Virus record (IMG/VR): IMGVR_UViG_3300030116_005269
Coordinates: 1-64,000 of that record
Direction: 5' to 3' (one strand)
Source of the DNA: an uncultured virus (IMG/VR IMGVR_UViG_3300030116_005269)
Lineage: Duplodnaviria > Heunggongvirae > Uroviricota > Caudoviricetes
Length of the DNA stretch: 64,000 nucleotides
Part shown: one piece after another, positions 48,270 to 62,678 of the stretch
Position numbering within the stretch: position 1 is the first letter of the stretch
How the letters are laid out: the number at the start of each line of letters is the position of its first letter
Position numbers and translations under genes: made by a program
The notes under the pieces: model-generated
The model's database searches: none
What the model saw: the letters and a program-made list of their open reading frames with translations, nothing else
Told to the model about the DNA's origin: nothing

Positions 48270-48279
48270 TTTTTTACTC

Positions 48280-49707
48280 CTAAATGTCTTCTGTAGTTTC
48301 TTCTATTTCAATATCGGTTAATATTGTTTCGGTTGCGATTCTTTGACTTTCTAGCCAAAGATCGTCTAACTCATTGTCTAATACTTCTTCAGTTGGTAAT
48401 TCCGCTTCGTCAACAGGATCTTCCTCTTGTCTTTCCTCGTCGGTATCAACTTCTGGTTCTTCCGCAGGCTCTTCCTCGGGTTTAACCTCGGTTTCCTCTA
48501 CGATTTCCTCAGCTTCTGCTACCGGCTCGTTAGATTCGATTACTTCCTCTTGTTGTACTTCGTCAACAACTTCTGTTGTGTCTTCCAATGCACCCTCCGT
48601 TCCAAATTCATCTACGAATTTGTCTATTTCATCAAAAGCGTCTTGTACGCTTTCTTGAACTGTCCTGAGAGCTTCAGTCGCCGAAACCCCCAACTTCCTA
48701 CCATTCTTTGCTCTAAGTTCCCCAATGGATTGAACTCGAGCTACGAGATTATTTAATGCAGCAAGCACATCTTTCACCTCATCCGAAAATCGCTTACCTT
48801 GCACGCTGGCACGATCATCGAAAACTTCACTATCCGCATTTGAAACATTATTAATTTTTTCACTAATGTCTTTTAAAGTTTCCATAGAAACTTCGTCTGT
48901 TGGGATAGATTTTAAAATTTCTTTCATATTGTTAGCTATTTCATTGAGATAACTAATTGATGTATTATGTTTTTTCAAAAGAGCTTCATAATCTTCGTGA
49001 GTTTTACACGGCATGTAATATGTTGCACCGTCCATCTCGTGAGTATGCGATCCCTCACAACCCATTTGTTTGGCTCTATTTTCTGCCTCTTCTGGCGTAA
49101 AGAAAAGATCTCCTGATAGAGCTTCTTTCTTTTCGTCGTCGGCGACAACTTCTTCTTTAGGCTCTTCTTGTTGTATGCTGTCGTGTGACAATACACCTTT
49201 TTCGTCTGTTTGATCCTTTTGACTTTTTATAGCCATAGTAAATGTTTCTTGGTTTGCACCTACCAAAACCGGACTAACTTCATACACAGATAAATCTTTA
49301 AGATAACGAACTTCCGCTTCGTCTTGATTGTCTTTTTTAAATTTTCCATACTCACTATCATTTACTCTAAAACCAAAAGACCATTGTTGCAAGTTTCCCA
49401 TGTTCTTTACAAGTTTGTAAGCTTCAGCACCTGACTCGGTGTCCATAAAAAATTCGCCGTCAAACACAGCTTTTTCTTCGTCTTTAACAATTCGACCTTT
49501 TCCAATAGGTTTATCCCATTGGTGCGCCCATACCATAGGTACGGTTTCGCTTTCTTGATCAAATCCTGATTTAATAGCTTGAGGTAATACAACATCACCA
49601 TCGCTATCAATATCATTGAATAAAGAGAAAACAGCTTTGACTTGCCCTTTTTGATCTTCCCCTTCTTTAAACTCTACTTGTATTTTTTTATACTCATCAT
49701 TTTTCAT
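48280..49707 (-). CDS. HK97-type prohead protease with insertion and acidic scaffold-like tail
   Basis: DSDGDVV, WAHQW..PIG, WSFGF, YEVSPVLVGAN. Confidence 0.9.
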   Translation of the reverse strand: MKNDEYKKIQVEFKEGEDQKGQVKAVFSLFNDIDSDGDVVLPQAIKSGFDQESETVPMVWAHQWDKPIGKGRIVKDEEKAVFDGEFFMDTESGAEAYKLVKNMGNLQQWSFGFRVNDSEYGKFKKDNQDEAEVRYLKDLSVYEVSPVLVGANQETFTMAIKSQKDQTDEKGVLSHDSIQQEEPKEEVVADDEKKEALSGDLFFTPEEAENRAKQMGCEGSHTHEMDGATYYMPCKTHEDYEALLKKHNTSISYLNEIANNMKEILKSIPTDEVSMETLKDISEKINNVSNADSEVFDDRASVQGKRFSDEVKDVLAALNNLVARVQSIGELRAKNGRKLGVSATEALRTVQESVQDAFDEIDKFVDEFGTEGALEDTTEVVDEVQQEEVIESNEPVAEAEEIVEETEVKPEEEPAEEPEVDTDEERQEEDPVDEAELPTEEVLDNELDDLWLESQRIATETILTDIEIEETTEDI

Positions 49708-49819
49708 GAAAAATTTCTCCTGTGTAAACCAAGTGCGCTATTACAAATATTAACTAATAATTTTTAAAGTTTGCGTATTTAGGGTAGCCCATGACAAAAA
49801 CTCAAATTTTGCATATCTC

Positions 49820-49828
49820 TGGTATAAT
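49820..49828 (+). promoter_or_regulatory. extended -10 promoter, leaderless
   Basis: TGGTATAAT, 6 nt before ATG 49835. Confidence 0.6.
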
Positions 49829-49834
49829 TTAAGT

Positions 49835-50068
49835 ATGAAAGTAGATGTCCTTTTGATTTCGACTTTACATACAAGTTCCGGTAGCTTTCAGCTGACTATC
49901 TTGTCGGATGGCACAGGTACGGCAGAAATCTTCGGTGAAACCGTGCAATTAAAACGCAACGGTAATAAAATAGATATATCAGGTAAATTCAACGCACGCG
50001 ACTTTAAGCGTGGCGCTGAGGAAAGAGATGAAATAGTATCATGGCTGAAAGAGGAAATGAAGCTATAA
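49835..50068 (+). CDS. hypothetical protein, antisense to the head module
   Basis: ORF track; own promoter. Confidence 0.55.
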   Translation: MKVDVLLISTLHTSSGSFQLTILSDGTGTAEIFGETVQLKRNGNKIDISGKFNARDFKRGAEERDEIVSWLKEEMKL

Positions 50069-50268
50069 AAACTGTAAGAGCGGACAAAGAATTTCAAAAA
50101 TTCATGGATGTTGTTGCAGTTAGTGACAAAACAAATAGAAATAAAATTATCACCGATTGGCTAGCATTGTTGTCTAGCGAAGAGCAAATTAGGTTAGTTA
50201 ATAAACTTAAAGAGCGTGGTGTAGATTATATACCTAACGAAAATACTAGATTTTTTGAAACTTCTTAA
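50041..50268 (+). CDS. hypothetical protein
   Basis: ORF track; overlaps the previous ORF and converges on the portal stop. Confidence 0.5.
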   Translation: MAERGNEAIKTVRADKEFQKFMDVVAVSDKTNRNKIITDWLALLSSEEQIRLVNKLKERGVDYIPNENTRFFETS

Positions 50269-52889
50269 TTTCTAAAATCTTTTATTTTTCTTAATTTTGA
50301 TATTGGTTGTGTGACAGACCTGTCTGTTTTCTTATGCGACCCATCTTCCATAATCGCCCAAACAACCATTGTTGCTTCTTGATCGGTATTGTTTACTGAA
50401 CTTACTACACCGTGAACAGTTGACGGTGGATCTGGATCTTTATTTATTGACCAAGACACAGTATCTCCAACTTTGACAGACTCTGCTTTTTCACTTCTAG
50501 CTGAGTTCATCTCAACTTCTGCTAAAGCCTCTGCCTCTTCGGTAGATACATTAATTTCCTCAATAATAAGGCTTGCATTTTTCTTTGAACTTAATGGGTG
50601 ATTGCTTGGTAGTAAATCTGTGTCATAAGGTTTTCTTTTAAATTTACCTGTTCTTAAAGCTCTTAATAGTCCATTCACTCTGGCCATTGCCCACTGCTGA
50701 GGTCCTGCAACATTACCTCTTACTGACCCCGGATTGTTTTGATATGCAGCTAAACCTCTATTGTAAGACGCTGTTAGCATTCTTAATGTAGCTCTATACT
50801 TAGGATTTTTTGAATTATGATCTTCAACTTTTTTCCTTAAACTAGCTTTTACTTTTTCACTAAGCGCTTTTTCTTCTATTTCTAGTAATAAAGCTTCTTG
50901 TATTTTTCTTCTTTCACGAATTACTTTTTTGTATTCATTTACAATTTTTTTCATAGAACTAACACCAGATTTAGTGACGCCACCCCATTTCATTACTGCG
51001 ATAGTACCGTTTAATCTTGTATTGCCTTTGTGACGATTCATAAATCTTTCTCTACGCTTTACCCAACTTAAAACAGATCCTGATCTATCACCGGAACGAT
51101 ATTTACCCCAACGATTAAATGCGTCATTACCTGTAAATGAAGTTGGTGGATTACCACCTGTACCGGCTCTACGCCAAATTTCAGGCCAATCCTCTTTTAG
51201 ATTTTTTACATAGTTGTAATCAGGAAATTGTTTATGTTGTGAATTAGAAATTGAAATTGTTTGATTATCACCTGATCTTGGAAAGTTAGTTATCTTAGGT
51301 GCTTTCTCATCTTTTTTCATACGAGATAATGCTTCATTGGCCTGTGTTTCACTTTCATAACATTTTATAACTTCGTTAGTATCGTGATCTAAAATACACC
51401 AAGCACCGTTAGGCATTTCGGCTACATACTTTTCTTCGGTCAAACGAGTCGGTGTAGGTTTTAAGATACCTGACCTTTGACTATCTACTTGTGCGCCACC
51501 GGTTGTTAAAACTTTATCAATAAGTTGTTTAGCAATTTCTACAACAGGATCTTCTTTTGGCTCTTCTTCTTTAGGTGGATCTTCTTGTACGGGTCTTTCG
51601 CCGTTAGCACTAACCTCAACCATATTTAGTGGTCTTAAATATACATCGTGTGTTTCGTCAGTTGAAAGTCCTGCTTGTTTTCTTGCTTCACCTATTGTCA
51701 CCCAACCACCGCTAACAGCAGTATTCATTCTTTTATAAACATCATCTTTATCTTGTGATAAAGCTCTTACATCGTCTAAGTTGTATTTTATGTGAAGCTC
51801 TTGTGCGCTGAAATCTTTTCTTAATAATTGATGTGTTAGCTCGGATGCAACTGATTTCCATAGCGGTACTAATTTTTGTTCGGTAAAAAACTCTCTAAGT
51901 TCACGAGTATTGTTATATGTAGCTGCGTCCAAACCTGCACCTAGTCCGGCCAATATTGCAGGTACACCTAAAACTGCGGAAACTCTTTCTTCAGGGATCT
52001 TCCTTAGTTCAGCTAAATTCATTTGATCTGGTGAGAAAGATACGACTTCTACATTCATTGATCCCGATAAGACCATAGGTGCGCCACGATTTTTTCCGCC
52101 GAACTTTTGTTTATACATAGCGGATATTGCTTCTGCCTCTTCTTTCGAAGGACCGCCCATTGAGTCATCTTTGGGTGAGAGGATGACACCGGGTACAGCC
52201 ATGTTATGTAAGAGTGCTGCTGCATACTGTCCTGCCGCTTCATCACCCAAGATTTCTCTTAATACAGATTTTAATGGGGCGAATCCGCGCCTATGGTTAT
52301 TAGGGTCAATACCATTTCGTATATGCACAATATCATTGGTTGGAACGACTATACTATTACCCCCAAGACCACCATAAGGGCTGTACTTAAAATGTGTTAT
52401 CAATGTATCTTCATCACCTTTTGGCTCTACTAAGTTTGGCATCAAAGGAACGAGCTGTACCACACTTCCGTCAGTATTTCGGTTTTTATATAAATAAGCG
52501 TCACCATAAGCAGATAATGAAACGACAATATAGTGAGCAAGTAAAGTTCCGGAAGTAAAAGGATTAGGTCTTTCTAAAAGTTTTATAATAGGATGATCTT
52601 TTACAAATTCAAAATCGCCGGCGTCCGTATCTTTATAAACTAAAGGTCTTGGCTCAGCAAAAGAAGTTGCTAAAACATTTAAACAAGCGACTACTGCTGA
52701 GTTGTTAGATCCATCTCCAATATCATCTAACGAGGTTGTAGGCCAATATCCTGAATCTGTGTTATAGCCGTAAACAGCTCTATCTAAAGCTGTTTGTTGA
52801 TTGTATCTATTGTATTTTTGTTCTTGTCTTTTAGTTGGTGCGTTTAAAAATTCTATTGCTCTTTGCACCCGTGATTTGTTTTCTGCCAT
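50265..52889 (-). CDS. portal protein (HK97-like) with long multi-domain C-terminal extension
   Basis: LLERPNP, GDAY, IVHIR, GFAPL, PGVIL, GVPAILAG, TIGEARK. Confidence 0.92.
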   Translation of the reverse strand: MAENKSRVQRAIEFLNAPTKRQEQKYNRYNQQTALDRAVYGYNTDSGYWPTTSLDDIGDGSNNSAVVACLNVLATSFAEPRPLVYKDTDAGDFEFVKDHPIIKLLERPNPFTSGTLLAHYIVVSLSAYGDAYLYKNRNTDGSVVQLVPLMPNLVEPKGDEDTLITHFKYSPYGGLGGNSIVVPTNDIVHIRNGIDPNNHRRGFAPLKSVLREILGDEAAGQYAAALLHNMAVPGVILSPKDDSMGGPSKEEAEAISAMYKQKFGGKNRGAPMVLSGSMNVEVVSFSPDQMNLAELRKIPEERVSAVLGVPAILAGLGAGLDAATYNNTRELREFFTEQKLVPLWKSVASELTHQLLRKDFSAQELHIKYNLDDVRALSQDKDDVYKRMNTAVSGGWVTIGEARKQAGLSTDETHDVYLRPLNMVEVSANGERPVQEDPPKEEEPKEDPVVEIAKQLIDKVLTTGGAQVDSQRSGILKPTPTRLTEEKYVAEMPNGAWCILDHDTNEVIKCYESETQANEALSRMKKDEKAPKITNFPRSGDNQTISISNSQHKQFPDYNYVKNLKEDWPEIWRRAGTGGNPPTSFTGNDAFNRWGKYRSGDRSGSVLSWVKRRERFMNRHKGNTRLNGTIAVMKWGGVTKSGVSSMKKIVNEYKKVIRERRKIQEALLLEIEEKALSEKVKASLRKKVEDHNSKNPKYRATLRMLTASYNRGLAAYQNNPGSVRGNVAGPQQWAMARVNGLLRALRTGKFKRKPYDTDLLPSNHPLSSKKNASLIIEEINVSTEEAEALAEVEMNSARSEKAESVKVGDTVSWSINKDPDPPSTVHGVVSSVNNTDQEATMVVWAIMEDGSHKKTDRSVTQPISKLRKIKDFRN

Positions 52890-54131
52890 TTAATATGCCG
52901 TCCATTCCCGTTTGGCCTGTGCGCTTAAAACTCCATAACCGATTGCGTCCACTATGTCATCATGATGACCTACCGGAAAACTCATTAATTCTCTTTCCAC
53001 TTCGGGCAACCACATAGCGCCCTGTCTTAAATACAGATCTCCGCTTTCCATTCTTGCGGCTAAAGGTAAAGCTCTTGAAACTTTATCTTTGTCAGCACGC
53101 AACTCTTTAACAGCAAGACCATCCCTTTTCGCAAATTGGATAAGCGAAAGCTGGAAACCTGCTCGTTCCATTCCTACCCATTGTAAATCATATTCCGCCA
53201 TTTTTTGTCTTATTCGGGGTATTATGTCCGGCGCTTCCATCCTTTGTCGATCAACATCAAGTAGCAATATTTTACCCATTGGCGTCACGGCAAAACTAGC
53301 TATTACTGTATAGTCAGCACCCTCTTGTATTGAAGTAGCTAAGTCAACAGTACAAAACCTAGAACAATCATATAATTCTACGGTTTCACCACTAGCAAAA
53401 AATCTACCATTTTTTTCCTTAAAATATCTAAGCCAATCAGGTTGCAACATACCCTGTCCCGCTTCTACAAATTCAGCTAAATACTCTTGAGCGTAAACTA
53501 TTGACCCTACTTCATCTTTTGCTTTTTCTACTTCTTCTCGATCAATAAAAGGGTTGTCAAATGTAGCAAATTGGAATTTTTCCCAATCGTCTTTTTTATC
53601 AGCAAATTCCCATAATTCATAAAACCAATTATTCATACCCATAGGTGTTGAGATAAATAAAGCACCACCTTTTCTTTCAGTAAGAGTAGGTCTTAATACT
53701 TGATGCCACACATCAGGTTTTACGAACGCGGCTTCGTCCATTACTAAGAAATCCAAACCCTCACCACGAAGTCTATGTGGCGTATCGGCTGATCTAACTG
53801 CAATAGATCCACCTCCGGGAAACTTTACTTCCATATTGACCAATGATATTTCAGGCTCTATTGCTTCTGGAAATGATCTGGCTGACTCTAAAATGTCACG
53901 CCAACCAACTCTTGCTATTGTGTAGGTAGGTGCTACCCACCAAGCTCTTTTACCTGCTAAAGCAGTTTGTAAACATAATTGAACGCCTAGTCTTGATTTA
54001 CCAAATCGCCGTCCTGCACATAATATTTTCCAACGAGCGTCGCTTTCAGCAACTTTTAATTGTGCTTCGTGTAATTCAGGAAATTCTGCAATTACTGTGC
54101 GACCGGCTTTATTATTTACTTGAACATCCAT
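52890..54131 (-). CDS. terL: terminase large subunit
   Basis: AGRRFGKS, LRGEG..LVMDEAAF, ISTP, VDLA, HDDIVDA. Confidence 0.95.
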   Translation of the reverse strand: MDVQVNNKAGRTVIAEFPELHEAQLKVAESDARWKILCAGRRFGKSRLGVQLCLQTALAGKRAWWVAPTYTIARVGWRDILESARSFPEAIEPEISLVNMEVKFPGGGSIAVRSADTPHRLRGEGLDFLVMDEAAFVKPDVWHQVLRPTLTERKGGALFISTPMGMNNWFYELWEFADKKDDWEKFQFATFDNPFIDREEVEKAKDEVGSIVYAQEYLAEFVEAGQGMLQPDWLRYFKEKNGRFFASGETVELYDCSRFCTVDLATSIQEGADYTVIASFAVTPMGKILLLDVDRQRMEAPDIIPRIRQKMAEYDLQWVGMERAGFQLSLIQFAKRDGLAVKELRADKDKVSRALPLAARMESGDLYLRQGAMWLPEVERELMSFPVGHHDDIVDAIGYGVLSAQAKREWTAY

Positions 54132-54148
54132 CAAGTAAAGTTTAGCAA

Positions 54149-55219
54149 CTAATTATCGTGAACTTTGTTTAATACGATTATATAAGCTGTTGTGTCAACA
54201 AGACTTTTTTGCTGTATAGCGGTAAGCTCGCTGTCTTTTGTGACTAGATATTTAGATTTAGCAGTAATTACTTGTTCAAGATCAAAATTCATAGTGTTCT
54301 CTACAAGTCTAAATAAATCTTGTAAATTGAAATCAGGATAGTTTCTTGTAATTATTGCTACTTTAGAATTTAAAGAACAACTTGTGCTTAGACTTAGTAT
54401 TGTTCTAGCTAAATAATTTTCAATATCTACTCTACCCATATTGTACTCTGCGTCCAAAGAATTAAATATAATAAAGTCTGCTTCGCCCATGCTTGCAGGG
54501 AATCTATCGTTTATAAAATCAAATTTTTCTACTTTCTTAGCGCTTGGGATCGGATCAAGATCATAAGACTTACAATCAAAACCCATAGCTGTTGCAACAT
54601 CTTTTGTGACTTGGAACTTATCACTCATATCAATAAGTTTTGTTTCGCTAGGAACTCCACCATAAAAATAAAGTAAATTACCTATAAGTTGTGGGTGTGT
54701 TTTGTTTTCCTCGTCATATCCATACAATTCATTTTTTTTACCAAAAGACCAAAATGTTGTTGGCTTGTAATTTAAACCTAGATCTTCTAAATCAACATTG
54801 TCGCTTTCTATAATTGTTTCTAAAACTTTTTGTTTTTTAATTATTGACCTTAGTGCTTTTACAGACAAGCCCTCGTCAAGAGCTTTATCTAAATATTCTT
54901 TTTGCAATCCTGCGTCTAATGATGCAACCTCCGAGTGATGTGTCCAAGACAATTCGGGATTTCGTCTTTCTAAAGGTACTTTATTTGCAACATAAGAAGC
55001 CTTACTAAAAGTATTGTAAGGTATTTCCATATTCAAAGCTTGTGCTGCGAGTTCACCATATTTGCGATCGCCAAAGTTCCACCAATCACCAAGCCACCAC
55101 ATAATATTTTGAGTTGCTTGCATTAGGTTTTGTCCTATTTCCAACCATTGCTCATAAGTAAGATCTTCTGCAAATTGGTAATAGTTGCTATCACGCTTAG
55201 TTTCTACTATCTCTCCCAT
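54149..55219 (-). CDS. LmbU-like N-terminal DNA-binding domain fused to a degenerate MTase-like domain
   Basis: WWLGDW...LSWTHHSEVA; C-terminal PQLIGNLL, LID, YDL, FIIFN. Confidence 0.5.
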   Translation of the reverse strand: MGEIVETKRDSNYYQFAEDLTYEQWLEIGQNLMQATQNIMWWLGDWWNFGDRKYGELAAQALNMEIPYNTFSKASYVANKVPLERRNPELSWTHHSEVASLDAGLQKEYLDKALDEGLSVKALRSIIKKQKVLETIIESDNVDLEDLGLNYKPTTFWSFGKKNELYGYDEENKTHPQLIGNLLYFYGGVPSETKLIDMSDKFQVTKDVATAMGFDCKSYDLDPIPSAKKVEKFDFINDRFPASMGEADFIIFNSLDAEYNMGRVDIENYLARTILSLSTSCSLNSKVAIITRNYPDFNLQDLFRLVENTMNFDLEQVITAKSKYLVTKDSELTAIQQKSLVDTTAYIIVLNKVHDN

Positions 55220-55254
55220 AACTTTATTTTACTATATTAAATGTTTAGTGTGAC

Positions 55255-55314
55255 AAAAAAAGAAAATTCCGGTTGCTCTAGGGGAAACAATTATAAAAAC
55301 CTAGAGCTACCAGA
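55255..55314 (-). terminator. long-stem terminator-like hairpin after thioredoxin
   Basis: 15-bp stem (one mismatch), 17-nt loop, followed by ATTTTCTTTTTTT. Confidence 0.6.
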
Positions 55315-55318
55315 TATA

Positions 55319-55639
55319 TCAAGTAATATGCTTTGCAAAAGAATCTTTTACATTTCCAATATTTACATTGGAACGAACTTCAGCAACAGGCAATCCTTTG
55401 TTAAACGCTATAAAGGTTGGCACACTATAAATACTATAATGTTGAGCAATCTTTGGTGCTTGGTCAATATCAAGTGCGACAAATTCGCAATCTTGATCTT
55501 CCCAAGACTTAGCAAGATTTTCTACTGCCGGTGTTATCTGCTTACATGGTTGACACCAATCAGCTTCAAATTTTACGATAGTAGTAGTATCTCTAAGTAC
55601 TGTGTCTGTGAAGTCCTCTTGATTTATTTTGCGTATCAT
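55319..55639 (-). CDS. thioredoxin
   Basis: FEADWCQPCK, SVPT. ATG 55639 lies 6 nt after TATAGT. Confidence 0.92.
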   Translation of the reverse strand: MIRKINQEDFTDTVLRDTTTIVKFEADWCQPCKQITPAVENLAKSWEDQDCEFVALDIDQAPKIAQHYSIYSVPTFIAFNKGLPVAEVRSNVNIGNVKDSFAKHIT

Positions 55640-55688
55640 AGTTTTACTATAATAACACAACTGAAATCATAGTTGGTAAAATAAATAT

Positions 55689-55832
55689 ATGAAAAAAATT
55701 AAAACTGTAAAAAAAGAACACGCTCCAACAATGAATAGAAAAGCTCGTCGTCAACTTGCAAAAAAAATTAGAAAAGATTTGGGCAAGGCTGTACCGTTAG
55801 ATACAGCCGATGATGGGAGGAAGTCGGTTTAG
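55689..55832 (+). CDS. 47-aa basic protein
   Basis: Manual: MKKIKTVKKEHAPTMNRKARRQLAKK...; TGGTAAAAT 6 nt upstream. Confidence 0.6.
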   Translation: MKKIKTVKKEHAPTMNRKARRQLAKKIRKDLGKAVPLDTADDGRKSV

Positions 55833-55880
55833 TAGCCGACCTAACTATCATAGACTATTTGATTTTAGTTTCAGGTAAAT

Positions 55881-55908
55881 AAAAAGAGTCGGTTGCCCGA
55901 CTCTCTTT
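55881..55908. terminator. bidirectional terminator
   Basis: AAAAAGAGTCGG-TTGC-CCGACTCTCTTT between convergent genes. Confidence 0.75.
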
Positions 55909-55982
55909 ACCGTATCAACAAAGGGCTGCTTTATTGAAATCTATTCTTACTATGGACTACCATAGACGATTACAATACTATT

Positions 55983-56180
55983 CTACTTCTCGTCAAATTT
56001 TTTGCAAATACCTAAGTATAAATTTACAAGATCGTCTGCGTCTTGTACTAAGTTAATACCTTTTATTCTCATATAATTAAATTGTTTTAAAACAATTTCT
56101 TTAAGATCACCATCGCTAATAAGTTCGTCAATAGCGTCTTCTCTTTTTGTTCCCGGAGGAAAATTTGGTATCTCAGCCAT
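55983..56180 (-). CDS. hypothetical protein
   Basis: ORF track; TAATG coupling. Confidence 0.65.
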   Translation of the reverse strand: MAEIPNFPPGTKREDAIDELISDGDLKEIVLKQFNYMRIKGINLVQDADDLVNLYLGICKKFDEK

Positions 56181-56365
56181 TAAATTGTCCCTTCTGCTTT
56201 TATTCCCGTCAAAGCTTCGTATTCGTCATTTTCTACAGGTGAGATAGTTGGCGGTATATAATCTTTTTCAGTTAAAAACATATCCCACAACTTTTGCAAA
56301 GCGTCATCCGAGTTCTTCGCTGTGACTTGAAAAGTTATTTTATAGTCAATTAACGGCTCACTCAT
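56180..56365 (-). CDS. hypothetical protein
   Basis: ORF track; V.A...DA pattern shared with the next gene. Confidence 0.6.
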   Translation of the reverse strand: MSEPLIDYKITFQVTAKNSDDALQKLWDMFLTEKDYIPPTISPVENDEYEALTGIKAEGTI

Positions 56366-56555
56366 TTGTACCTTCTATCTCTGTGTACTTCTTAACAATA
56401 TCACATTGATAGTTAATTTTAGCCTGCCACAACAAATCTTTTTGAGAACTTTGTTTAAAATCAAATATTTCTTGTACTTTTTTTATTGCTTCCGTTTCAT
56501 TATCAGCTTCAAGTATGTAGTCCTCTGTCGTTTCAAAGCTAACCATTATTTTCAT
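56358..56555 (-). CDS. hypothetical protein
   Basis: ORF track; GGGAGG RBS. Confidence 0.6.
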   Translation of the reverse strand: MKIMVSFETTEDYILEADNETEAIKKVQEIFDFKQSSQKDLLWQAKINYQCDIVKKYTEIEGTNE

Positions 56556-56570
56556 TTACTGCCTCCCTGA

Positions 56571-56668
56571 TTCTATTCTACTCTATTCTATTATACTCTA
56601 TTCTACTCTTATCTACTCTACTCTAGCGCGTTATTGTCACAAATTGTCACGATTTGTCACATGTGACA
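56571..56668. repeat. pentamer array plus three phased TTGTCAC repeats (origin-like)
   Basis: About 11 (C/T)TCTA-like units; TTGTCAC at 56634, 56644 and 56654; palindrome TGTCACATGTGACA. Confidence 0.75.
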
Positions 56669-56787
56669 TACAAAAATAAATAGTCAATATTTATGGGATT
56701 TTAAAAGATTGTAGTCGGCGACAAGTTTACAAAATGTTAACAATTAAAGGCTGTTAATGTTTTGCAAAACTGCTATATTTGTTAGCT

Positions 56788-56931
56788 ATGGATTATTTTT
56801 TAGGATTTATATTTGGTTTCTTTGTTAAAGAAACATTAGCGTATCTCAAGCAACTAAGCGATTGGGATTACGATAACCGCCGTGGTTATGAATTTGATTT
56901 AGATCCTCTTACTGAGGACGATTTACCTTAG
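56788..56931 (+). CDS. 47-aa small membrane protein
   Basis: Manual: MDYFLGFIFGFFVKETL...; TGCTATATT upstream. Confidence 0.55.
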   Translation: MDYFLGFIFGFFVKETLAYLKQLSDWDYDNRRGYEFDLDPLTEDDLP

Positions 56932-58516
56932 TAATCTCAGGGTCAAAGATCAAAGTATCTTCTATCAATGACCTTATAATTAAACGACCCGTCAATTCCA
57001 TAAACTGTGGAACTACACCATTACCTAAAGCTTTAAGTCTATCAATGTCGTTGTCTTGTCTTTCAGCAACTCTGTTTATTTGATCTTCCCAAGAATTATC
57101 AACACCCCAAGAGTTTATTTGTCCAAGTTCAGCCAACCATCTGGAAATCCCATGAGTCTGGTCACCCATTCCGGATTCAGCCTTTGACCAATCAATTCTG
57201 GATTCCGTTCCCCAACATCCATCTCTAAAGTAGAGCCATGCGACCCACTCGCTACTGACGGAGCTTTCTTGTTCACGGGCTTGCTTGCTTGACTTGCCCT
57301 CGGTGTTGAAAACCTTTCCCTCACTTGTACTTTGTCCGCTAGATTGAGGGATCGATCCTCGCCCCCGTTCTTTGCTATCCGGCGTCCCTTCTCGTTCAGT
57401 TTGAGATTGAGATGTTCGTTGTCCTGTGTCGAGGGTGTCGGCCACATTTCCACTTCCTCTTTGGTTTTCCACTCTATCACTTCTATCGTCGTCAATTCTT
57501 TGTCGAACTTCACTTCCGTCAAGTGTGGCTTGATCTTGCTCCAATCCTCTATGCTCGGGTAATTGAATCCTTTGTCGTCCTTCCTGTACCAATGATCGAC
57601 CGTCGTTTTCTTTATTCCGGTTTTCTTGGCTAGTTCCGTCGCCCCTATTTGACTCCTTATGTATTCCGTCCACTCCTTTTGTGTTGGTAGTAGTGGTCTT
57701 TCCACCATCTCGTGATCTTGGTAATACTCCATCAAGCTCGGGTCTTTCTCTATCATTTCCATCCAAACTTGATCGCTCAATGTTCTTTGTACTCTGTGTC
57801 CCGACGATCTCCTCGTTTTCCCCTGCATAAGTTTCGTTGCGTGTTTCAACGAGTCGTCTTTGTTGTCCATTGTTGTAGGAGTCAACCAAATCTTTGGATT
57901 TTCTCGTAAGTTCCCAGTGCCTTTTCTTTTGCTCTTCCTCTCGGGATCTCCACGATACAACGCTCTCTCCAAAGCGTCCCCTGACCTCGGCTCTAAGTAA
58001 TCCATAGTGTTTGGGGTCTCCCACGATTCCAACTCCCACCCATCTTTGTCTTTTGTGTCTTGCTCCAACGAATTTTGCTGATATAAGTTGCCATTCAAAT
58101 CGATAATACCGCATTTCGGCCACACCTTTGATGACACGGTTAATGGCTTCTCCGTTGCTTGCTCGGAGGATGTTTGGGACATTTTCCAAGATAAAGATTG
58201 GTGGTCGTATCTCATCAATAAATCTTTCGACTTCATCCCATAACCATCTTTCATCTTTTACTCCTTTTTGATTTCCTGCAACGCTTACCGGTTGACACGG
58301 AAACCCTGCTGTCAAAATATCTACTTTTGATAGATACTTTGTATTTACTTTTTCTATATCTTTATTTAAAACTAAAGTATTTGGAAAGTTCTTTTCTAGT
58401 ATTTTACAACAAAAATCGTCATTTTCTACCGCCCAAGCAACTTCATCAATAAGACCTGATCGTAGTAAACCAAGCTCTATACCACCAATACCTGAAAATA
58501 AACTACCTAGTTTCAA
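56909..58516 (-). CDS. DNA (cytosine-5) methyltransferase, alpha chain
   Basis: LFSGIGG, GFPCQ, ENV, HKRQR, RLKALGNGVVPQ; no recognisable motif IX. Confidence 0.9.
   Translation of the reverse strand: MKLGSLFSGIGGIELGLLRSGLIDEVAWAVENDDFCCKILEKNFPNTLVLNKDIEKVNTKYLSKVDILTAGFPCQPVSVAGNQKGVKDERWLWDEVERFIDEIRPPIFILENVPNILRASNGEAINRVIKGVAEMRYYRFEWQLISAKFVGARHKRQRWVGVGIVGDPKHYGLLRAEVRGRFGESVVSWRSREEEQKKRHWELTRKSKDLVDSYNNGQQRRLVETRNETYAGENEEIVGTQSTKNIERSSLDGNDRERPELDGVLPRSRDGGKTTTTNTKGVDGIHKESNRGDGTSQENRNKENDGRSLVQEGRQRIQLPEHRGLEQDQATLDGSEVRQRIDDDRSDRVENQRGSGNVADTLDTGQRTSQSQTEREGTPDSKERGRGSIPQSSGQSTSEGKVFNTEGKSSKQAREQESSVSSEWVAWLYFRDGCWGTESRIDWSKAESGMGDQTHGISRWLAELGQINSWGVDNSWEDQINRVAERQDNDIDRLKALGNGVVPQFMELTGRLIIRSLIEDTLIFDPEITKVNRPQ
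57115..58254 (-). CDS. nested out-of-frame C5-MTase beta chain
   Basis: 379-aa ORF with W.TP repeats and terminal RLNPEWVTRLMGFPDGW (motif IX). Confidence 0.8.
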   Translation of the reverse strand: MKDGYGMKSKDLLMRYDHQSLSWKMSQTSSEQATEKPLTVSSKVWPKCGIIDLNGNLYQQNSLEQDTKDKDGWELESWETPNTMDYLEPRSGDALERALYRGDPERKSKRKGTGNLRENPKIWLTPTTMDNKDDSLKHATKLMQGKTRRSSGHRVQRTLSDQVWMEMIEKDPSLMEYYQDHEMVERPLLPTQKEWTEYIRSQIGATELAKKTGIKKTTVDHWYRKDDKGFNYPSIEDWSKIKPHLTEVKFDKELTTIEVIEWKTKEEVEMWPTPSTQDNEHLNLKLNEKGRRIAKNGGEDRSLNLADKVQVRERFSTPRASQASKPVNKKAPSVASGSHGSTLEMDVGERNPELIGQRLNPEWVTRLMGFPDGWLNLDK

Positions 58517-59570
58517 TACTTTCCCAACTCATTTCAGGATTTGAATAATGTGATAATTCTATTTGTGAATAGTCTTGATTGTATAAATCTAATCTTTCAA
58601 TAATACCTCTTGGTGTCATATCAAATTTGCTAACAAAATCCTCTAATACTTTTTGACTCACATGAAGTTGATCAAACCCACCTACCTGTATTTCAAGTGG
58701 TTTATCTAAGCCAATACCATAAGCTAATCGAACATAGCATTTATCAGCCAAACCATTGGCTACTACATTTTTAGCTAAGTGTCGTGCAGCATAAGCACCT
58801 GATCGGTCAACTTTACTAGGGTCTTTTCCTGAGTATGCGCCTCCGCCTACGGCTACGCTTGGACCATAGGCGTCAGCGACAATCTTGCGACCTGTCAAAC
58901 CGGTATCGGCTGACGGTCCGCCTTTCGTGAATGAGCCACTTGGATTAAGATATAAAACATTTAAGTTAGTTTGCAATGTGTTTTCTACTATGGTGTGTAT
59001 TAAAGAATATATAGACTCTTTATCCCATTGCTTATCATGTTGCACCGAAACAATAACTTGGTAAGTGTTTCCAAGATTAGTCACTTGTACTTTTCCGTCT
59101 AGATCAAGATCATCTCTATATTTTTGTAAAGCATATACTTGTTCAGCAATCTTTAGAGTTTTGTAAAAATTATTAGGTAAATATAAATCATTTGTATTTT
59201 CTGCATACCCAATCATTATTCCCTGATCTCCTGCACCAAAATCTTTTTTGCTAACAACCGCTTTATTTATCTCGTTTGATTGTTTTGTAATTACATTTTG
59301 TATTTCTGCTTTTTTTACATCAAACTCGTCATTGTTTGTTTTTATATATTTAGATAAAACTTCTCTTACAGTAGATACAACTTTTGATGGCATCATTGAC
59401 ATTTCACCACCAACTACTACAAGCCCTTTATCTTTAGTTCCGGTTATAAAAGTTTCTACGGCTACTTTTGTTTCTTTGTTTTCTTTTAACGCAATGTTGA
59501 GTAAAGCGTCGCTAATTTTATCGGCGATCTTATCGGGGTGTCCCGGAGTCACCATTTCATCAGTCATCAT
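58503..59570 (-). CDS. metK: S-adenosylmethionine synthetase
   Basis: GHPDK, GAGDQG, DTGLTGRKI, GGGAYSGKDPSKVDRS. Confidence 0.95.
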   Translation of the reverse strand: MMTDEMVTPGHPDKIADKISDALLNIALKENKETKVAVETFITGTKDKGLVVVGGEMSMMPSKVVSTVREVLSKYIKTNNDEFDVKKAEIQNVITKQSNEINKAVVSKKDFGAGDQGIMIGYAENTNDLYLPNNFYKTLKIAEQVYALQKYRDDLDLDGKVQVTNLGNTYQVIVSVQHDKQWDKESIYSLIHTIVENTLQTNLNVLYLNPSGSFTKGGPSADTGLTGRKIVADAYGPSVAVGGGAYSGKDPSKVDRSGAYAARHLAKNVVANGLADKCYVRLAYGIGLDKPLEIQVGGFDQLHVSQKVLEDFVSKFDMTPRGIIERLDLYNQDYSQIELSHYSNPEMSWESIETR

Positions 59571-60297
59571 ATTCAATTCGCTCCTTTGCAATATGAAAAT
59601 ATTTCAATTCTTTTTCGATACCTATAAATTTCCTACCGGTATTGACACAAGCAACTCCCGTTGATCCTGATCCCATTGTGAAATCAAGTACCGTGTCCCC
59701 TTCAAGCGTATAGGTTTCTATAAGATATTCTAACAAAAGTACAGGTTTTTGTGTTGGGTGATAAGATTTTTGATTTTTCTTTTGATTATCCCTAGCAAAA
59801 TAAAGCATATTTGTTTTAGTTTTGTGTGTGTAAGTCACATATTTGCGATTACCTTTATTGTCTAAGTTATTTCTAGCTGTTGCAAAGCTTTCACCACCAG
59901 ATATAGTGCGTACCCTAGTTATAGGTTTTGGTAGTTTTTCACCCTGCCAATCATATTCGGGTTGATCTTTATAAAAAATAGATATGTTTTCATTTTTTCT
60001 TAATGGTTGTTTTTTACTAAAGGCTTGTCCTGTTCCTTTGTCTTTTTCCCATATCCAATCGTATCTATATTCGTCTATGTTGGATAATCGTAAAAAACTA
60101 CTAAAAGGCTCTAAACCAAATAAAGCTATTGGTGTATTGTCTTTTCTTATTCTTTTTAGTTGTTCCCACATTATTTCTTTAGGAACTTGATTATCCCAAT
60201 TATATTCTGTAGTCCCGTATGGAAGATCTGTTAAAACTAAATCAATAGATTCGTCATCAATTTGTTGCATTATCTCAATGCAGTCGCCTAGATACAA
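59560..60297 (-). CDS. N4/N6 DNA methyltransferase (beta class)
   Basis: TDLPYG, HPTQKP, LDFTMGSGSTG. Confidence 0.92.
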   Translation of the reverse strand: MYLGDCIEIMQQIDDESIDLVLTDLPYGTTEYNWDNQVPKEIMWEQLKRIRKDNTPIALFGLEPFSSFLRLSNIDEYRYDWIWEKDKGTGQAFSKKQPLRKNENISIFYKDQPEYDWQGEKLPKPITRVRTISGGESFATARNNLDNKGNRKYVTYTHKTKTNMLYFARDNQKKNQKSYHPTQKPVLLLEYLIETYTLEGDTVLDFTMGSGSTGVACVNTGRKFIGIEKELKYFHIAKERIEYDD

Positions 60298-60305
60298 TTT
60301 AGTAT

Positions 60306-60836
60306 CTATTTCACTAACCTTTCCATAATGATCTGTTTCGGCAGGAAATCTCTACAATAATAAGAACTAGAAAAAGTAGGACTTCCCATACCTTTACCGT
60401 CTTTTATGTATTCAATTCGCTTATCAAACATTAAAAGCTCTAAATCTATGTTCTCGAACAAATGTTTGGGTGCTGCGTCATTTAGCCAAGTGTTTGACAT
60501 AAGTAATGCAAAAGGTTTGTTAAAACTTAAAGCTCTTTCAAAAATTTGTCTTTTTCCGGTAAAAGGTGGATTAGATACAATAATATCCCACCTATCCGGC
60601 TCGTATTCATAAAAGTCTTGATCTTGCGATATGTGTGAACTAACAACTTCATTTTGCTGTCCTATAAGTTTTACAAACCAACTATGTGATAAATCAAAAG
60701 GACACCAAACTGTAGCGTCTTTTGGAATATATTTTAAAATTGGCCTTACACCATATTCCGGTGTGTAGCATTCGTCGTTCTTACCTTTAGAGTAGAGAAC
60801 TTTATTACTATCGATTCCCCAAGTGCTATTCGTCAA
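60306..60836 (-). CDS. N6-adenine methyltransferase (NPPF type)
   Basis: DECYTP, WCPFD, SNPPF. Probable TTG start at 60836. Confidence 0.8.
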   Translation of the reverse strand: MTNSTWGIDSNKVLYSKGKNDECYTPEYGVRPILKYIPKDATVWCPFDLSHSWFVKLIGQQNEVVSSHISQDQDFYEYEPDRWDIIVSNPPFTGKRQIFERALSFNKPFALLMSNTWLNDAAPKHLFENIDLELLMFDKRIEYIKDGKGMGSPTFSSSYYCRDFLPKQIIMERLVK

Positions 60837-61362
60837 AACTATAATTCCTACATTCAAATAATTCGATACCCGGCTTGTCTTTTTCAAAAATTACAAAAAT
60901 ACACGGAAACCCAAACCACTCCGGAACAAAGAAGTACGCTATACCGGTAAGGCCAAAGTTTGCTTCTTTCACCATTTGCATACGCTTTCTAGTTATATTG
61001 TGTCCTGCCATTATGTAAGCAAAGCCTTTTTGGGACACTTCAATCGATTTTTCAAAAACTCTATTTAATTTAGAAAATGGTGGATTTGAAACACACCAAT
61101 CAACTTCTTGATCATAAGTAAAAAAATTAGTTTCGTATGGTGGGCGGATCTCCGTAAAGTCTTTGTCAACAAAATCAGGGTAATTATCATACCAAACGCC
61201 TTTTCCATAAAAAGGGTCTAAAACTTTGTCGCCGGCGACAAAAGGTACACTATTGATACAATTTATTGCTAATTGCTTTGGCGTGTAAATAATATCATTT
61301 TTTCGTTCTTTAGAGCTTTGATAACTCTTGGCGACTACACCTCGTTCCCCCATACATCCCAT
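60826..61362 (-). CDS. N6-adenine methyltransferase (NPPF type)
   Basis: YTP, VLDPFYGKG, SNPPFS. Confidence 0.8.
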   Translation of the reverse strand: MGCMGERGVVAKSYQSSKERKNDIIYTPKQLAINCINSVPFVAGDKVLDPFYGKGVWYDNYPDFVDKDFTEIRPPYETNFFTYDQEVDWCVSNPPFSKLNRVFEKSIEVSQKGFAYIMAGHNITRKRMQMVKEANFGLTGIAYFFVPEWFGFPCIFVIFEKDKPGIELFECRNYSFDE

Positions 61363-61871
61363 CCTTCCGTTTTTTCTCGTGCGAACAATTCAATTCTAGG
61401 AAGATCACCACATAAGTCAACGATATGGGATTTAATAATATCGGGCTTTTTACTATGTCGTTCTCTTGGTGCAACTACTAATTCTCTTACACCTTTGGAA
61501 ACTCGACTAGGTTTTCCTTTTGTTGCTAATAAACACAATTCGGGATTACCGCGTGTCCAATAACCAAGCCCTGTAAAAAATCCCTCGCTTTTCATATTTT
61601 CCTTAGCCCAAACAAAACCCATTGTTTTATAAGTAAAACCCCAACTCTCGATAACTTCAAACGCTATTGGTAAAGAGTGATTCACTACCCATAGAAATAG
61701 AACACAATGAGTATCTGCAATATCGTTTACCTTTAATGATTTTATCCAATCAATACTTTGAGTTTCATAATGTTGGTTTGGATTTCGTCCCTCTCCCTTT
61801 TTGCTGAAGTTTTTAAAGCTCCATGGAGGATCGGCATAGATAATATTATATTTCTTATCGGGGAACTCCAT
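61335..61871 (-). CDS. MT-A70 family adenine methyltransferase
   Basis: IIYADPPW, LFLW, HSKKP, RIELFAR, WGNE. Confidence 0.93.
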   Translation of the reverse strand: MEFPDKKYNIIYADPPWSFKNFSKKGEGRNPNQHYETQSIDWIKSLKVNDIADTHCVLFLWVVNHSLPIAFEVIESWGFTYKTMGFVWAKENMKSEGFFTGLGYWTRGNPELCLLATKGKPSRVSKGVRELVVAPRERHSKKPDIIKSHIVDLCGDLPRIELFAREKTEGWDVWGNEV

Positions 61872-61921
61872 AAAATAAGTATAAATAAATTTGTTTATAA
61901 TTCAATTCATGCTACATTTAA

Positions 61922-62026
61922 TAATGTTCATTGAAGGACAGATCAGGCTTTCTAGCCTAGTCCTGTTTCCTTTCTATGTTCGATACTTAACATTAAGCCA
62001 GCTACCAAGATAGTTGGCTTTTTGTT
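61922..62026 (+). ncRNA. candidate small RNA (or 29-aa leaderless peptide)
   Basis: TGCTACATT promoter, 5-prime hairpin, UUUCCUUUC stretch, plus-strand terminator at 61995-62026. Confidence 0.4.
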
Positions 62027-62027
62027 T

Positions 62028-62678
62028 TTAGCTCGAATATTTTATTTGGAAAACTATTGGTTTGTCGTCATCCGACTTTTCGCTATGTTCTCGTTTAGAC
62101 CATTCTTTAGGATTTGATCGTTCAAGAAACCATGCACTAGCTTGCCATATACCATTTGAGGCAGCATCCGTGATTACAGCTAGGTGTGAGATCTCCCCAT
62201 CTACCTTTGCTTTTTTTATAGACTCCCAAAATTCCCATAATTCCAGATCTTCAACATTTTTTATGTTATCTGGATTACCAGAACACGCTTCATCTATCTT
62301 TGTTGCTTCTTGTTGCCAACGATAAAAGGTTGTAGAACTTATACCTGCAAAGGTTGCAGCCTTATTATTCGACAATCCAAGCTTTAGAGCCTTTACTAAG
62401 TCCGTAAGCGTTTCTGTGGTCAATTTACTAGGTCTCCCTACTTCGTGTCCTACAATCTCAACCTCGACGGCGTCGTGATCAACTATATCGGTTTCCGGAA
62501 GATCTACCTCTAGTTCATCAAATCCAATATCGTCGTCAATTACAACTTCGCTATCGGTTAGATCGGCCACTTCCTTACCGGAATAATCATTATCATTATT
62601 ATCATTATTAGATAATCCTTCTACAACATCTCGTCTTTGATCAGGATCTTTGAACATATCTCTTATGTCATTATTCAT
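62028..62678 (-). CDS. terminase small subunit-like protein
   Basis: GRPSKLT, HTH (GISSTTFYRW), WQASAWFLER. Confidence 0.7.
   Translation of the reverse strand: MNNDIRDMFKDPDQRRDVVEGLSNNDNNDNDYSGKEVADLTDSEVVIDDDIGFDELEVDLPETDIVDHDAVEVEIVGHEVGRPSKLTTETLTDLVKALKLGLSNNKAATFAGISSTTFYRWQQEATKIDEACSGNPDNIKNVEDLELWEFWESIKKAKVDGEISHLAVITDAASNGIWQASAWFLERSNPKEWSKREHSEKSDDDKPIVFQIKYSS

Follow-up and report, generated by a model that had tools for sequence, protein, structure and literature searches.

The window analysed here is the whole stretch of 64,000 nucleotides (nt) at positions 1 to 64,000 of the uncultured virus record IMGVR_UViG_3300030116_005269 (IMG/VR). On its minus strand it carries a C5 DNA methyltransferase gene in which a second gene lies completely nested in another frame. 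The locus, from a marine phage, probably encodes an orphan phage C5 DNA methyltransferase of the M.EcoHK31I kind, i.e. a heterodimer whose two chains, hereafter alpha and beta, are read in two frames from one stretch of DNA. A two-chain enzyme of this type had already been proposed in a preliminary description, made from the sequence without database searches. The proposal is supported by the nesting of the two frames in 43 of 43 complete related loci, by an AAGGAG and an ATG for beta, by purifying selection on the beta frame (ratio of nonsynonymous to synonymous substitution, dN/dS, of 0.13), by an alpha frame that stays open across beta, and by a co-fold of the two chains.

Reading Frames and Catalytic Motifs

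Alpha comprises the catalytic domain, and beta is contained entirely within it:

56909..58516, minus strand: alpha gene, 535 amino acids (aa), TTG start; large (catalytic) domain of a C5 DNA methyltransferase with motifs I-VIII, a long tether and motif X
58481-58498, minus strand: alpha motif I, FSGIGG
58292-58306, minus strand: alpha motif IV, GFPCQ
58172-58186, minus strand: alpha motif VI, ENVPN
58043-58060, minus strand: alpha motif VIII, RHKRQR
57170..58021, minus strand: alpha tether, aa 166-449 (~284 aa), the alpha-frame reading of the beta coding sequence (CDS); stop-free, unconserved as protein and poorly aligned in alignment A2
57005-57028, minus strand: alpha motif X, LGNGVVPQ
56912..57114, minus strand: alpha-only C-terminus with motif X, where the alpha-frame codon periodicity is back; G498, N499, V501, V502 and P503 invariant in A2
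57115..58254, minus strand: beta gene, 379 aa, ATG start, frame +1 relative to alpha and entirely within it; a putative N-terminal docking region, four WxTPxxxD modules, a helix-turn-helix (HTH) insert and motif IX
57133-57183, minus strand: motif IX, RLNPEWVTRLMGFPDGW, beta aa 358-374; columns invariant in alignment A1

Alpha matches PF00145 (E 2.2e-47, 162.5 bits at a cut-off of 22) and TIGR00675 (dcm; 138 bits at a cut-off of 100.65). Its catalytic motifs I (FxGxGG), IV (PCQ, with the catalytic Cys), VI (ENV), VIII and X (GNxVP) lie in one chain and are invariant in alignment A2. The preliminary description had thus correctly recognised a 535-aa frame with motifs I, IV, VI, VIII and X as well as a nested 379-aa open reading frame (ORF) on the same strand but in another frame, with motif IX at its end; this ORF was located at 57115-58254. 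In a C5 methylase of the usual build, the variable region and motif IX would stand between motifs VIII and X of the same chain; here, motif IX and the conserved modules belong to beta in the +1 frame. Over the alpha gene, the alpha frame has no internal stop, while the third frame of the same strand has 51. Beta matches PHROG 1008 ('DNA methyltransferase', E 3.8e-9), and a search of NCBIfam returned no family matching it.

The middle of alpha had been described as low-information sequence. This agrees with an apparent alpha-frame dN/dS of 2.2 and with the hydrophilic composition of the tether (20% hydrophobic, 36% charged and 43% polar, Gly or Pro residues), which is as expected for a disordered tether; the segment is probably disordered. 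Likewise, the overlap is richer in G+C (GC) than its surroundings, as had been noticed, with 44-53% across 57100-58200 vs 30-35% in the flanks.

Conservation of the Nesting and the Start Signal of Beta

A scan of viral contigs with beta identified 46 loci with beta identities of 42-100%, from which three truncated ones (L005, L045 and L046) were left out to give 43 complete loci. In every one of these, a +1 ORF that terminates with motif IX is enclosed by an ORF bearing motifs I, IV, VI and X. Identical frames were also found in independent assemblies with 99% (L001), 95% (L002) and 100% (L005) beta identity. Another 38 loci were reached through P0045, a more distant homologue, and 21 of them have a nested or co-extensive layout, with the beta stop 4 nt beyond the alpha stop in six of the 21; the other loci are AquI-like (five), truncated, or not resolved by motif patterns. 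In addition, three database proteins (P0036, P0037 and P0048) join stretches of the two frames at other junctions; the 'VADT...' of the alpha frame in P0048, for instance, passes directly into beta-frame module sequence.

Beta is preceded by start signals of its own:

58261..58266, minus strand: Shine-Dalgarno (SD)-like AAGGAG, 6 nt upstream of the beta ATG
58258-58260, minus strand: TAA in the beta frame, just upstream of the beta ATG

Among the 43 related loci, 42 have an AAAGGAG-like sequence with a 5-nt SD-like core at -18..-4 from the beta ATG, and a beta-frame stop lies at most three codons upstream of the ATG in 34.

Selection by Frame across the Overlap

The window was aligned with 17 close relatives, and mean pairwise diversity was determined with 10 representatives at alpha codon positions 1/2/3:

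Alpha-only N-terminus: 0.19/0.06/0.41, the normal alpha-frame pattern
First 234 nt of the overlap: 0.07/0.00/0.09, every position constrained
Remaining ~900 nt of the overlap: 0.35/0.14/0.09, the beta pattern (beta position 3 being alpha position 1)
Downstream of the beta stop: 0.32/0.17/0.47, the alpha-frame pattern again
58024..58254, minus strand: overlap I, where beta aa 1-77 share their DNA with alpha aa 88-165 (motifs VI-VIII); amino-acid constraint in both frames

Estimates of dN/dS (Nei-Gojobori, eight pairs) were 0.13 for the alpha-only N-terminus at a synonymous divergence (dS) of 1.35, and 0.13 for alpha and 0.26 for beta in overlap I, where dS is depressed about 7-fold to 0.15-0.20. 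In overlap II, the beta frame gave 0.13 at a dS of 0.98 and the alpha frame the apparent 2.2 mentioned above. The value of 0.37 for the alpha-only C-terminus is noisy, with some pairs saturated and one pairwise ratio negative. Hence, the comparison of dN/dS in both frames that had been suggested at the outset places beta under purifying selection over most of the overlap. Three layers can be distinguished: motifs VI-VIII and the first ~77 beta residues are dual-coded, then beta is constrained and alpha only open, and outside the overlap coding is single. The initial claim of about 1.1 kb of dual coding therefore stands for ~234 nt at the 5' end of the overlap and falls for the other ~900 nt, in which alpha is merely open.

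An Alpha Frame Kept Open

The openness of the alpha frame across beta is beyond chance. No alpha-frame stop was observed, whereas stops averaged 18.6 and never fell below 7 when beta's own codons were shuffled synonymously 20,000 times, and averaged 40.9 when codons were drawn from the usage of neighbouring genes (5,000 draws, minimum 24). An alpha-frame stop requires a T at the third position of a beta codon ahead of a codon beginning with AA, AG or GA. In the window, T occupies this position before none of 143 such codons vs 54 of 235 elsewhere. Pooled over the 43 loci, the count is 0 of 3,859 vs 1,851 of 7,220, which merely restates the openness of alpha in all of them.

Two natural controls are provided by relatives with other layouts. 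In 16 loci (L020, L023, L025, L027-L030, L032 and L034-L041), beta is short (184-188 aa), and the homologous WRTPTTMD/HTH module is found together with further TP modules downstream, in alpha's own frame and outside the overlap. There, the -1 frame, which is equivalent to alpha over beta, contains 23-41 stops per 653-791 nt, and freedom from stops is thus no property of the module sequence. The idea that alpha is stop-free as a by-product of module composition was rejected on these grounds, the same modules having a stop-rich -1 frame outside the overlap. Protein P0101 is a representative of the layout seen in L028, with modules in alpha's own frame.

The second control consists of five complete AquI-like loci (L052-L056), in which alpha (motifs I-VIII) terminates ~350 nt inside beta, whose single frame holds the modules together with motifs IX and X. 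Over the remainder of beta, the alpha frame of L052, L054 and L055 contains 42-44 stops, and T precedes 41-43 of 116-127 AA, AG or GA codons, vs 1 of 27-28 inside the short overlap. Taken together, the two controls show that selection holds the frame open only where motif X has to be reached by alpha. Openness thus tracks the location of motif X, and this is the strongest argument that a continuous alpha chain is needed.

Predicted Assembly of Alpha and Beta

The co-fold of both chains, another check that had been suggested, passed its controls with a score of 0.86 from 19-row alignments vs 0.00 for the best of three controls. A mark of 0.86 is reached by 116 of 157 solved complexes and by 2 of 215 mismatched pairs, counts that are approximate here since the alignments were custom ones. 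At least 36% of contacts are shared between the runs, with a predicted local distance difference test score (pLDDT) of the partner of at least 58. On the alpha side, confident contacts involve residues 10-15 (motif I), 38-43, 117-155 and 458-504 (the surroundings of motif X); on the beta side, they involve 16-71 and 313-377 (module 4 and motif IX). More precisely, beta 16-71 pairs with alpha 117-155 (e.g. alpha 141 with beta 50), and beta 313-377 with alpha 458-504 and motif I (e.g. alpha 497 with beta 364). For beta modules 1-3, no confident contact with alpha was predicted in the co-fold. As far as the accessible text of a published account goes, C5 methylases comprise a large domain, which holds motifs I-VIII plus X, and a small one with the variable region and motif IX (PMC3404938), and the predicted contacts fit this plan. 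The model thus supports binding of beta to alpha.

Modules, HTH Insert and Motif IX of Beta

Downstream of its first 77 residues, beta is organised in repeats:

57889..58023, minus strand: module 1, WETPNTMD...GNLRENPKI, beta aa 78-122; in 19 of 19 rows of alignment A1
57445..57888, minus strand: module 2, WLTPTTMD..., beta aa 123-270; cassette-like presence or absence in A1
57478-57696, minus strand: Xre/Cro-like HTH insert of module 2, about beta aa 187-259, as judged by fold matches
Beta aa 205-222: HTH-like string
57313..57444, minus strand: module 3, WPTPSTQD...LADKVQVRER, beta aa 271-314; the alpha frame reads the module start as 'VADT'
57118..57312, minus strand: module 4, FSTPRASQ... 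(from beta aa 315), and motif IX

The four repeats named in the preliminary description (WETPNTMD, WLTPTTMD, WPTPSTQD and FSTPRASQ) accordingly begin at beta aa 78, 123, 271 and 315, and the string it had taken for an HTH-like insert is the one at aa 205-222.

The fixed core of beta in A1 consists of the N-terminal region, module 1, module 4 and motif IX, and other cassettes are cleanly in or out. Module 3 is absent from L007, L008 and L010 and lies ahead of module 1 in L038; module 4 is present in 18 of 19 rows, its segment (A1 columns 367-406) being gapped in L038. In L019, a different module replaces the HTH module, which itself resides within beta in the group of the window and within alpha in the 16 loci with short beta. 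The ~70-aa HTH module (..IKKSTIDHWFRRDKGGFSYP..) is also carried by an N6/N4-type (SPPY) methyltransferase of Twort-like Staphylococcus phages, as in Alsa_2 (OR354821.1; L048:1422-2564), and the module thus moves between unrelated methylase classes. Pfam matches to the HTH insert are below the cut-off (HTH_26, E 0.19; Xre-MbcA-ParS_M, E 0.069). Fold matches over beta aa 187-259 are mostly Xre, Cro and C-protein HTH chains of modest Z (4.2-6.1), the best being 7t5u_A (Z 6.1, root-mean-square deviation 2.3, 59 aligned residues).

From their sequence behaviour, the modules may be target-recognition cassettes. A single-chain metagenome protein of 1214 aa, P0129, carries motifs I, IV, VI and VIII (the last at aa 157), 16 xxTP modules spaced 38-79 aa apart, and motifs IX (aa 1115) and X in one frame, and thereby shows the canonical order which alpha and beta together rebuild. 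Another metagenome protein, P0236 (528 aa), is beta-like with a match to a LAGLIDADG homing endonuclease (PF00961, E 1.2e-5, aa 152-206), which may represent a mobile element inside a beta gene.

Proposed Mechanism and Alternative Explanations

Ribosomes starting at the alpha TTG would produce the catalytic chain and read through the beta gene, whose alpha-frame translation would form a soluble tether to motif X. The internal AAGGAG-N6-ATG would presumably provide for separate translation of beta. The N-terminal region of beta could then dock on the alpha strand between motifs VI and VIII, while its motif IX would pack on alpha motifs X and I, so that the N-terminal region and motif IX clamp alpha. 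Thus held, beta would place its module array over the major groove of the DNA. Beta may accordingly represent the entire small target-recognition domain, built from tandem ~44-aa WxTPxxxD modules, one of them expanded by the Xre-like HTH insert and each conceivably a specificity unit. The two chains, both of which would probably be required, would in combination rebuild the canonical order of motifs I-VIII, variable region, IX and X.

Several points weigh against this scheme. Translation of beta and binding of the chains are indicated indirectly, by sequence and model. The switch of codon periodicity from alpha to beta and back is equally expected from a single chain made via two frameshifts. 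The related loci are not independent, many being near-identical and forming roughly four sequence groups. The SD-like site overlaps conserved Lys-Gly codons of alpha, which partly forces its conservation. The fusions in P0036, P0037 and P0048 indicate that indel variants or assembly errors exist in the family. Packing of motif IX on motif X is intramolecular in solved single-chain C5 methylases, and the co-fold may have passed by this likeness. Beta folded alone (AF2, 78-row alignment) is mostly of low confidence (mean pLDDT 55), and confident only at about aa 130-260 (pLDDT 70-91). A fold search of beta is informative only for aa 187-259, leaving the modules not comparable with solved target-recognition domains (TRDs); a PDB sequence search with the beta profile gave no match at E<=1, and neither sequence nor fold linked the modules to a characterised TRD in these searches.

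The two frames could instead give rise to one polypeptide if ribosomes shifted +1 from alpha to beta once past motif VIII and returned to alpha by a -1 shift once past motif IX. Such a chain would account for the switching periodicity, would have the canonical order found in the single-chain relative P0129, and might find a parallel in the fused-frame proteins P0036, P0037 and P0048. We nevertheless regard it as very unlikely. Programmed frameshifting has no need for an open alpha frame of ~900 nt, yet this frame is open in 43 of 43 loci and stop-rich wherever alpha need not read through. Moreover, the first 77 codons of beta lie upstream of any shift site and are nonetheless constrained in the beta frame, their products are also predicted to contact alpha, and beta has its own SD sequence and ATG. 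The C-terminus of beta varies in A1 (WLD, WLN, WLS, WLNLD, WLNLE, WLDLD and WLNLDK), which leaves no conserved slippery site ahead of the beta stop. The probability of an ordinary single-frame gene broken by two compensating errors is negligible, even though metagenome assemblies carry indel errors in general and some related database proteins show odd frame fusions. Compensating sequencing frameshifts, which the preliminary description had named as grounds for abandoning its reading, are excluded by the frames shared among the independent assemblies L001, L002 and L005, with 40 more diverged loci in agreement, and errors would neither keep alpha open nor clear it of every stop. It is also highly improbable that the enzyme consists of three pieces, with alpha useless past motif VIII, motif X provided by a small peptide that has its own start downstream of beta, and the open frame incidental. 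The AquI-like relatives do show that alpha can end soon after motif VIII, but they fuse motif X to beta, and their alpha frame immediately fills with stops. In the window and in 43 of 43 loci, by contrast, the frame bearing motif X is continuous with alpha; no SD-preceded start was noticed before motif X, although no search was aimed at one.

A more serious challenge concerns the two-chain enzyme from within, namely that both chains are correctly identified and that specificity is not divided among the WxTPxxxD modules as individual units. The modules might instead make up one composite surface, a non-specific DNA-gripping array, or docking elements, implying one target or relaxed specificity and not several targets. 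This is a possibility to be reckoned with, if a somewhat doubtful one. The near-universal presence of modules 1 (19/19) and 4 (18/19) in A1 fits structural roles, module 4 is predicted to contact alpha (beta 313-327), neither tblastn against phages nor the PDB sequence search found similarity to characterised TRDs, and a relative with 16 modules would imply implausibly many targets. On the other hand, modules 2 and 3 are gained and lost as clean cassettes among close relatives, with a changed order in L038, and modules 1-3 are without confidently predicted contacts to alpha. Furthermore, the module spacing of 38-79 aa in P0129 resembles the size reported for the TRDs of multispecific Bacillus phage methylases.

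Genomic Context

The IMG/VR record from which the window is taken comprises 85,160 bases and is rated complete. The window has the look of a tailed phage, with an HK97-type capsid, a prohead protease, a portal, a large terminase and a tape-measure-like protein, all on the minus strand. The locus is part of a methylation island flanked by a small-terminase-like gene (62028-62678, PHROG 4102) on one side and by the large terminase (52890-54134) on the other:

58503-59591: phage S-adenosylmethionine synthetase MetK, overlapping the alpha start by 14 nt
59560-60297: N6_N4 methylase
60306-60887 and 60826-61362: methylase-like ORFs (PHROG 799) with a 62-nt overlap, both matching the same part of PHROG 799
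61335-61871: MT-A70 methylase

The PHROG 799 pair may, from its sequence, represent a split gene or two paralogues in tandem. Of the 12 neighbouring ORFs scanned (47028-62678), none matched a restriction endonuclease family, and several have no family match at all. Given the island and the absence of an endonuclease family among these ORFs, the enzyme most likely has an anti-restriction role, in which it would methylate the phage's own DNA against host restriction.

Between the terminase and the methylase lie a 356-aa ORF adjoining the terminase (54149-55219), which has no Pfam or PHROG match, and a phage thioredoxin (55319-55660; PF00085, E 8e-20). Elsewhere in the window, a second same-strand +1 nested pair was observed, with an ORF of 181 aa (16738-17283) inside one of 442 aa (16595-17923); neither has a Pfam match.

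Breadth of the Family and Significance

Homologues of beta number 141 at E<=1e-3. A profile search of 1.84 billion cluster representatives returned 2,769 beta-like proteins with a cut-off of E<=1e-3 and 228 with the cut-off set to E<=1e-10, and 14 of 16 sampled beta-like proteins are without a Pfam family. Among cultured phages, tblastn with beta matched the motif-IX regions of methylase genes from Paenibacillus and Bacillus phages. In Paenibacillus phage Lilo (OP503991.1; L049:1192-1704), an unannotated beta-like ORF of 170 aa occupies the +1 frame of the annotated 260-aa methylase CDS, and the beta ORF is likewise unannotated in Paisley, Harrison, Dash and Callan, i.e. in five Paenibacillus phages altogether. 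With Lilo beta as the query, tblastn retrieved 65 phage records, 54 of them from Paenibacillus and the rest from Lacticaseibacillus/Lactobacillus, Porphyromonas and others. In bacterial and archaeal genome contigs matched by the beta profile, motif IX is again encoded in frame +1 relative to an ORF that bears motifs I and X at 11 of 14 loci; the profile matched these mostly around motif IX alone, and in contigs of high-GC actinomycetes long open frames by themselves mean little. A related nested alpha/beta locus with a beta N-terminus 38% identical was also observed in a metagenome-assembled genome of an uncultured Rickettsiales bacterium (L091; CAYLHV010000017.1, 2122-3021), which might point to a prophage or to the lineage of the host.

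The nested layout in 43 of 43, 21 of 38 and 11 of 14 loci, the unannotated beta ORFs, the 2,769 representatives and the gaps in Pfam raise the prospect of a large, largely unannotated class, in which 'short' phage and prophage C5 methylases are actually two-chain enzymes with the DNA-reading domain hidden in the +1 frame. In this tentative picture, which we put forward without claiming that it is the probable one, beta of the marine branch would be a cassette rack, with ~44-aa TRD-like modules and the HTH domain being inserted, lost, reordered and moved between the beta and alpha frames, and each insertion into beta later being purged of alpha-frame stops. If true, methylation specificities could be changed or multiplied in a plug-in manner with the catalytic chain untouched, and the overlap of 1,140 nt would rank among the longest same-strand overlaps with good support in a virus of prokaryotes. 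Should the cassettes determine specificity, they would also provide a new route for diversifying the anti-restriction methylation of phages.

Apart from this, the locus offers a clean natural example of a long same-strand overlap (379 codons), with controls that separate dual coding, an open-only frame and single coding. It also exposes an annotation gap, as beta-type ORFs have been missed in several phage genomes and lack a Pfam model, and short phage methylases annotated as Dcm may be misjudged as being without a recognition domain. The catalytic and DNA-reading halves are apparently separable at a domain boundary, which would be useful for split or retargetable methylases, an engineering use to which M.EcoHK31I, according to the available portion of one report, has already been put (PMC2836561).

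Comparison with Known Systems

The closest counterpart is M.EcoHK31I from E. coli, which recognises YGGCCR. According to the accessible parts of the published accounts, its beta chain is read in a different frame from DNA lying wholly inside alpha and both chains are needed, alpha contributes motifs I-VIII plus X while beta contributes motif IX, and N-terminal deletions of beta weaken the association (PMC2836561, PMC3404938). The locus described here shares the nesting of beta in alpha in frame +1 and the distribution of motifs, as far as this description allows the two to be likened, and the predicted interface also involves the N-terminal region of beta. Unlike M.EcoHK31I, for which the description assigns the TRD to alpha and gives beta as small, the conserved modules of the variable region here reside in a beta of 379 aa, and it is the beta frame that is under purifying selection between motifs VIII and IX. 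Furthermore, M.EcoHK31I is part of a restriction-modification system, whereas no endonuclease family was found here among the 12 neighbouring ORFs scanned. M.AquI, in the part of the literature consulted, is a two-chain C5 methylase split in the variable region, with motifs I-VIII in alpha and the distal variable region and motifs IX-X in beta (PMC3404938). A split in the variable region is common to both systems, and the relatives L052-L056 match the M.AquI layout exactly, with an overlap of ~350 nt; in the window, by contrast, motif X lies in the alpha frame and alpha must read through all of beta.

Among cultured phages, a beta-like ORF occupies the same +1 nested position in the Paenibacillus larvae phages Lily (gp62/gp63) and Tadhana (gp54/gp55), where it is annotated as 'g62 internal gene' (GenBank/RefSeq) and as a second methylase, respectively. 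These internal genes resemble beta in their N-terminal region, a TP module and motif IX, but they are short (163-234 aa by CDS spans), have one or two modules and lack an HTH insert. In the accessible text of two papers, the Paenibacillus phage genes are listed and their nesting is left undiscussed (PMC6070908, PMC5056774).

No sequence similarity to the multispecific Bacillus methylases was found, beta having matched 11 phage records at E<=1e-5 with yong1 as the sole Bacillus phage. The C5 methyltransferases of the Bacillus phages SPR, phi3T and rho11s reportedly carry several tandem units of ~40-50 aa between motifs VIII and IX in a single chain, and orphan phage methylases of this type are said to protect against many host restriction systems. 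The tandem-unit plan of the present enzyme is similar and differs in its distribution over two chains.

As for out-of-frame genes within phage methylases, the available part of a report on the ShiLan insertion describes an HNH endonuclease hidden in actinophage DNA methylases, with the host frame stop-free and presumably forming a loop (PMC11855218). Both cases involve a phage methylase gene with a nested out-of-frame ORF that the host frame reads through. Unlike the ShiLan element, which by that account is a selfish and patchily distributed homing endonuclease, the nested ORF here looks like an essential part of the methylase and occurs in every relative. A selfish insertion was considered for beta and rejected, as beta carries motif IX and is present in every relative.

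A limited literature search turned up no study of beta genes nested in the C5 methylases of phages. The kind of arrangement is already known from M.EcoHK31I and from the annotated internal gene in Paenibacillus phage Lily. The present locus is a much larger variant and is set apart by the length of its overlap (1,140 nt), by the location of the conserved variable region in beta, by the cassette-like, HTH-bearing character of beta, and by the separation of the layers of constraint through comparative data. With the conserved variable region residing in beta, the split between the two chains follows the boundary between the large and the small domain of C5 methylases.

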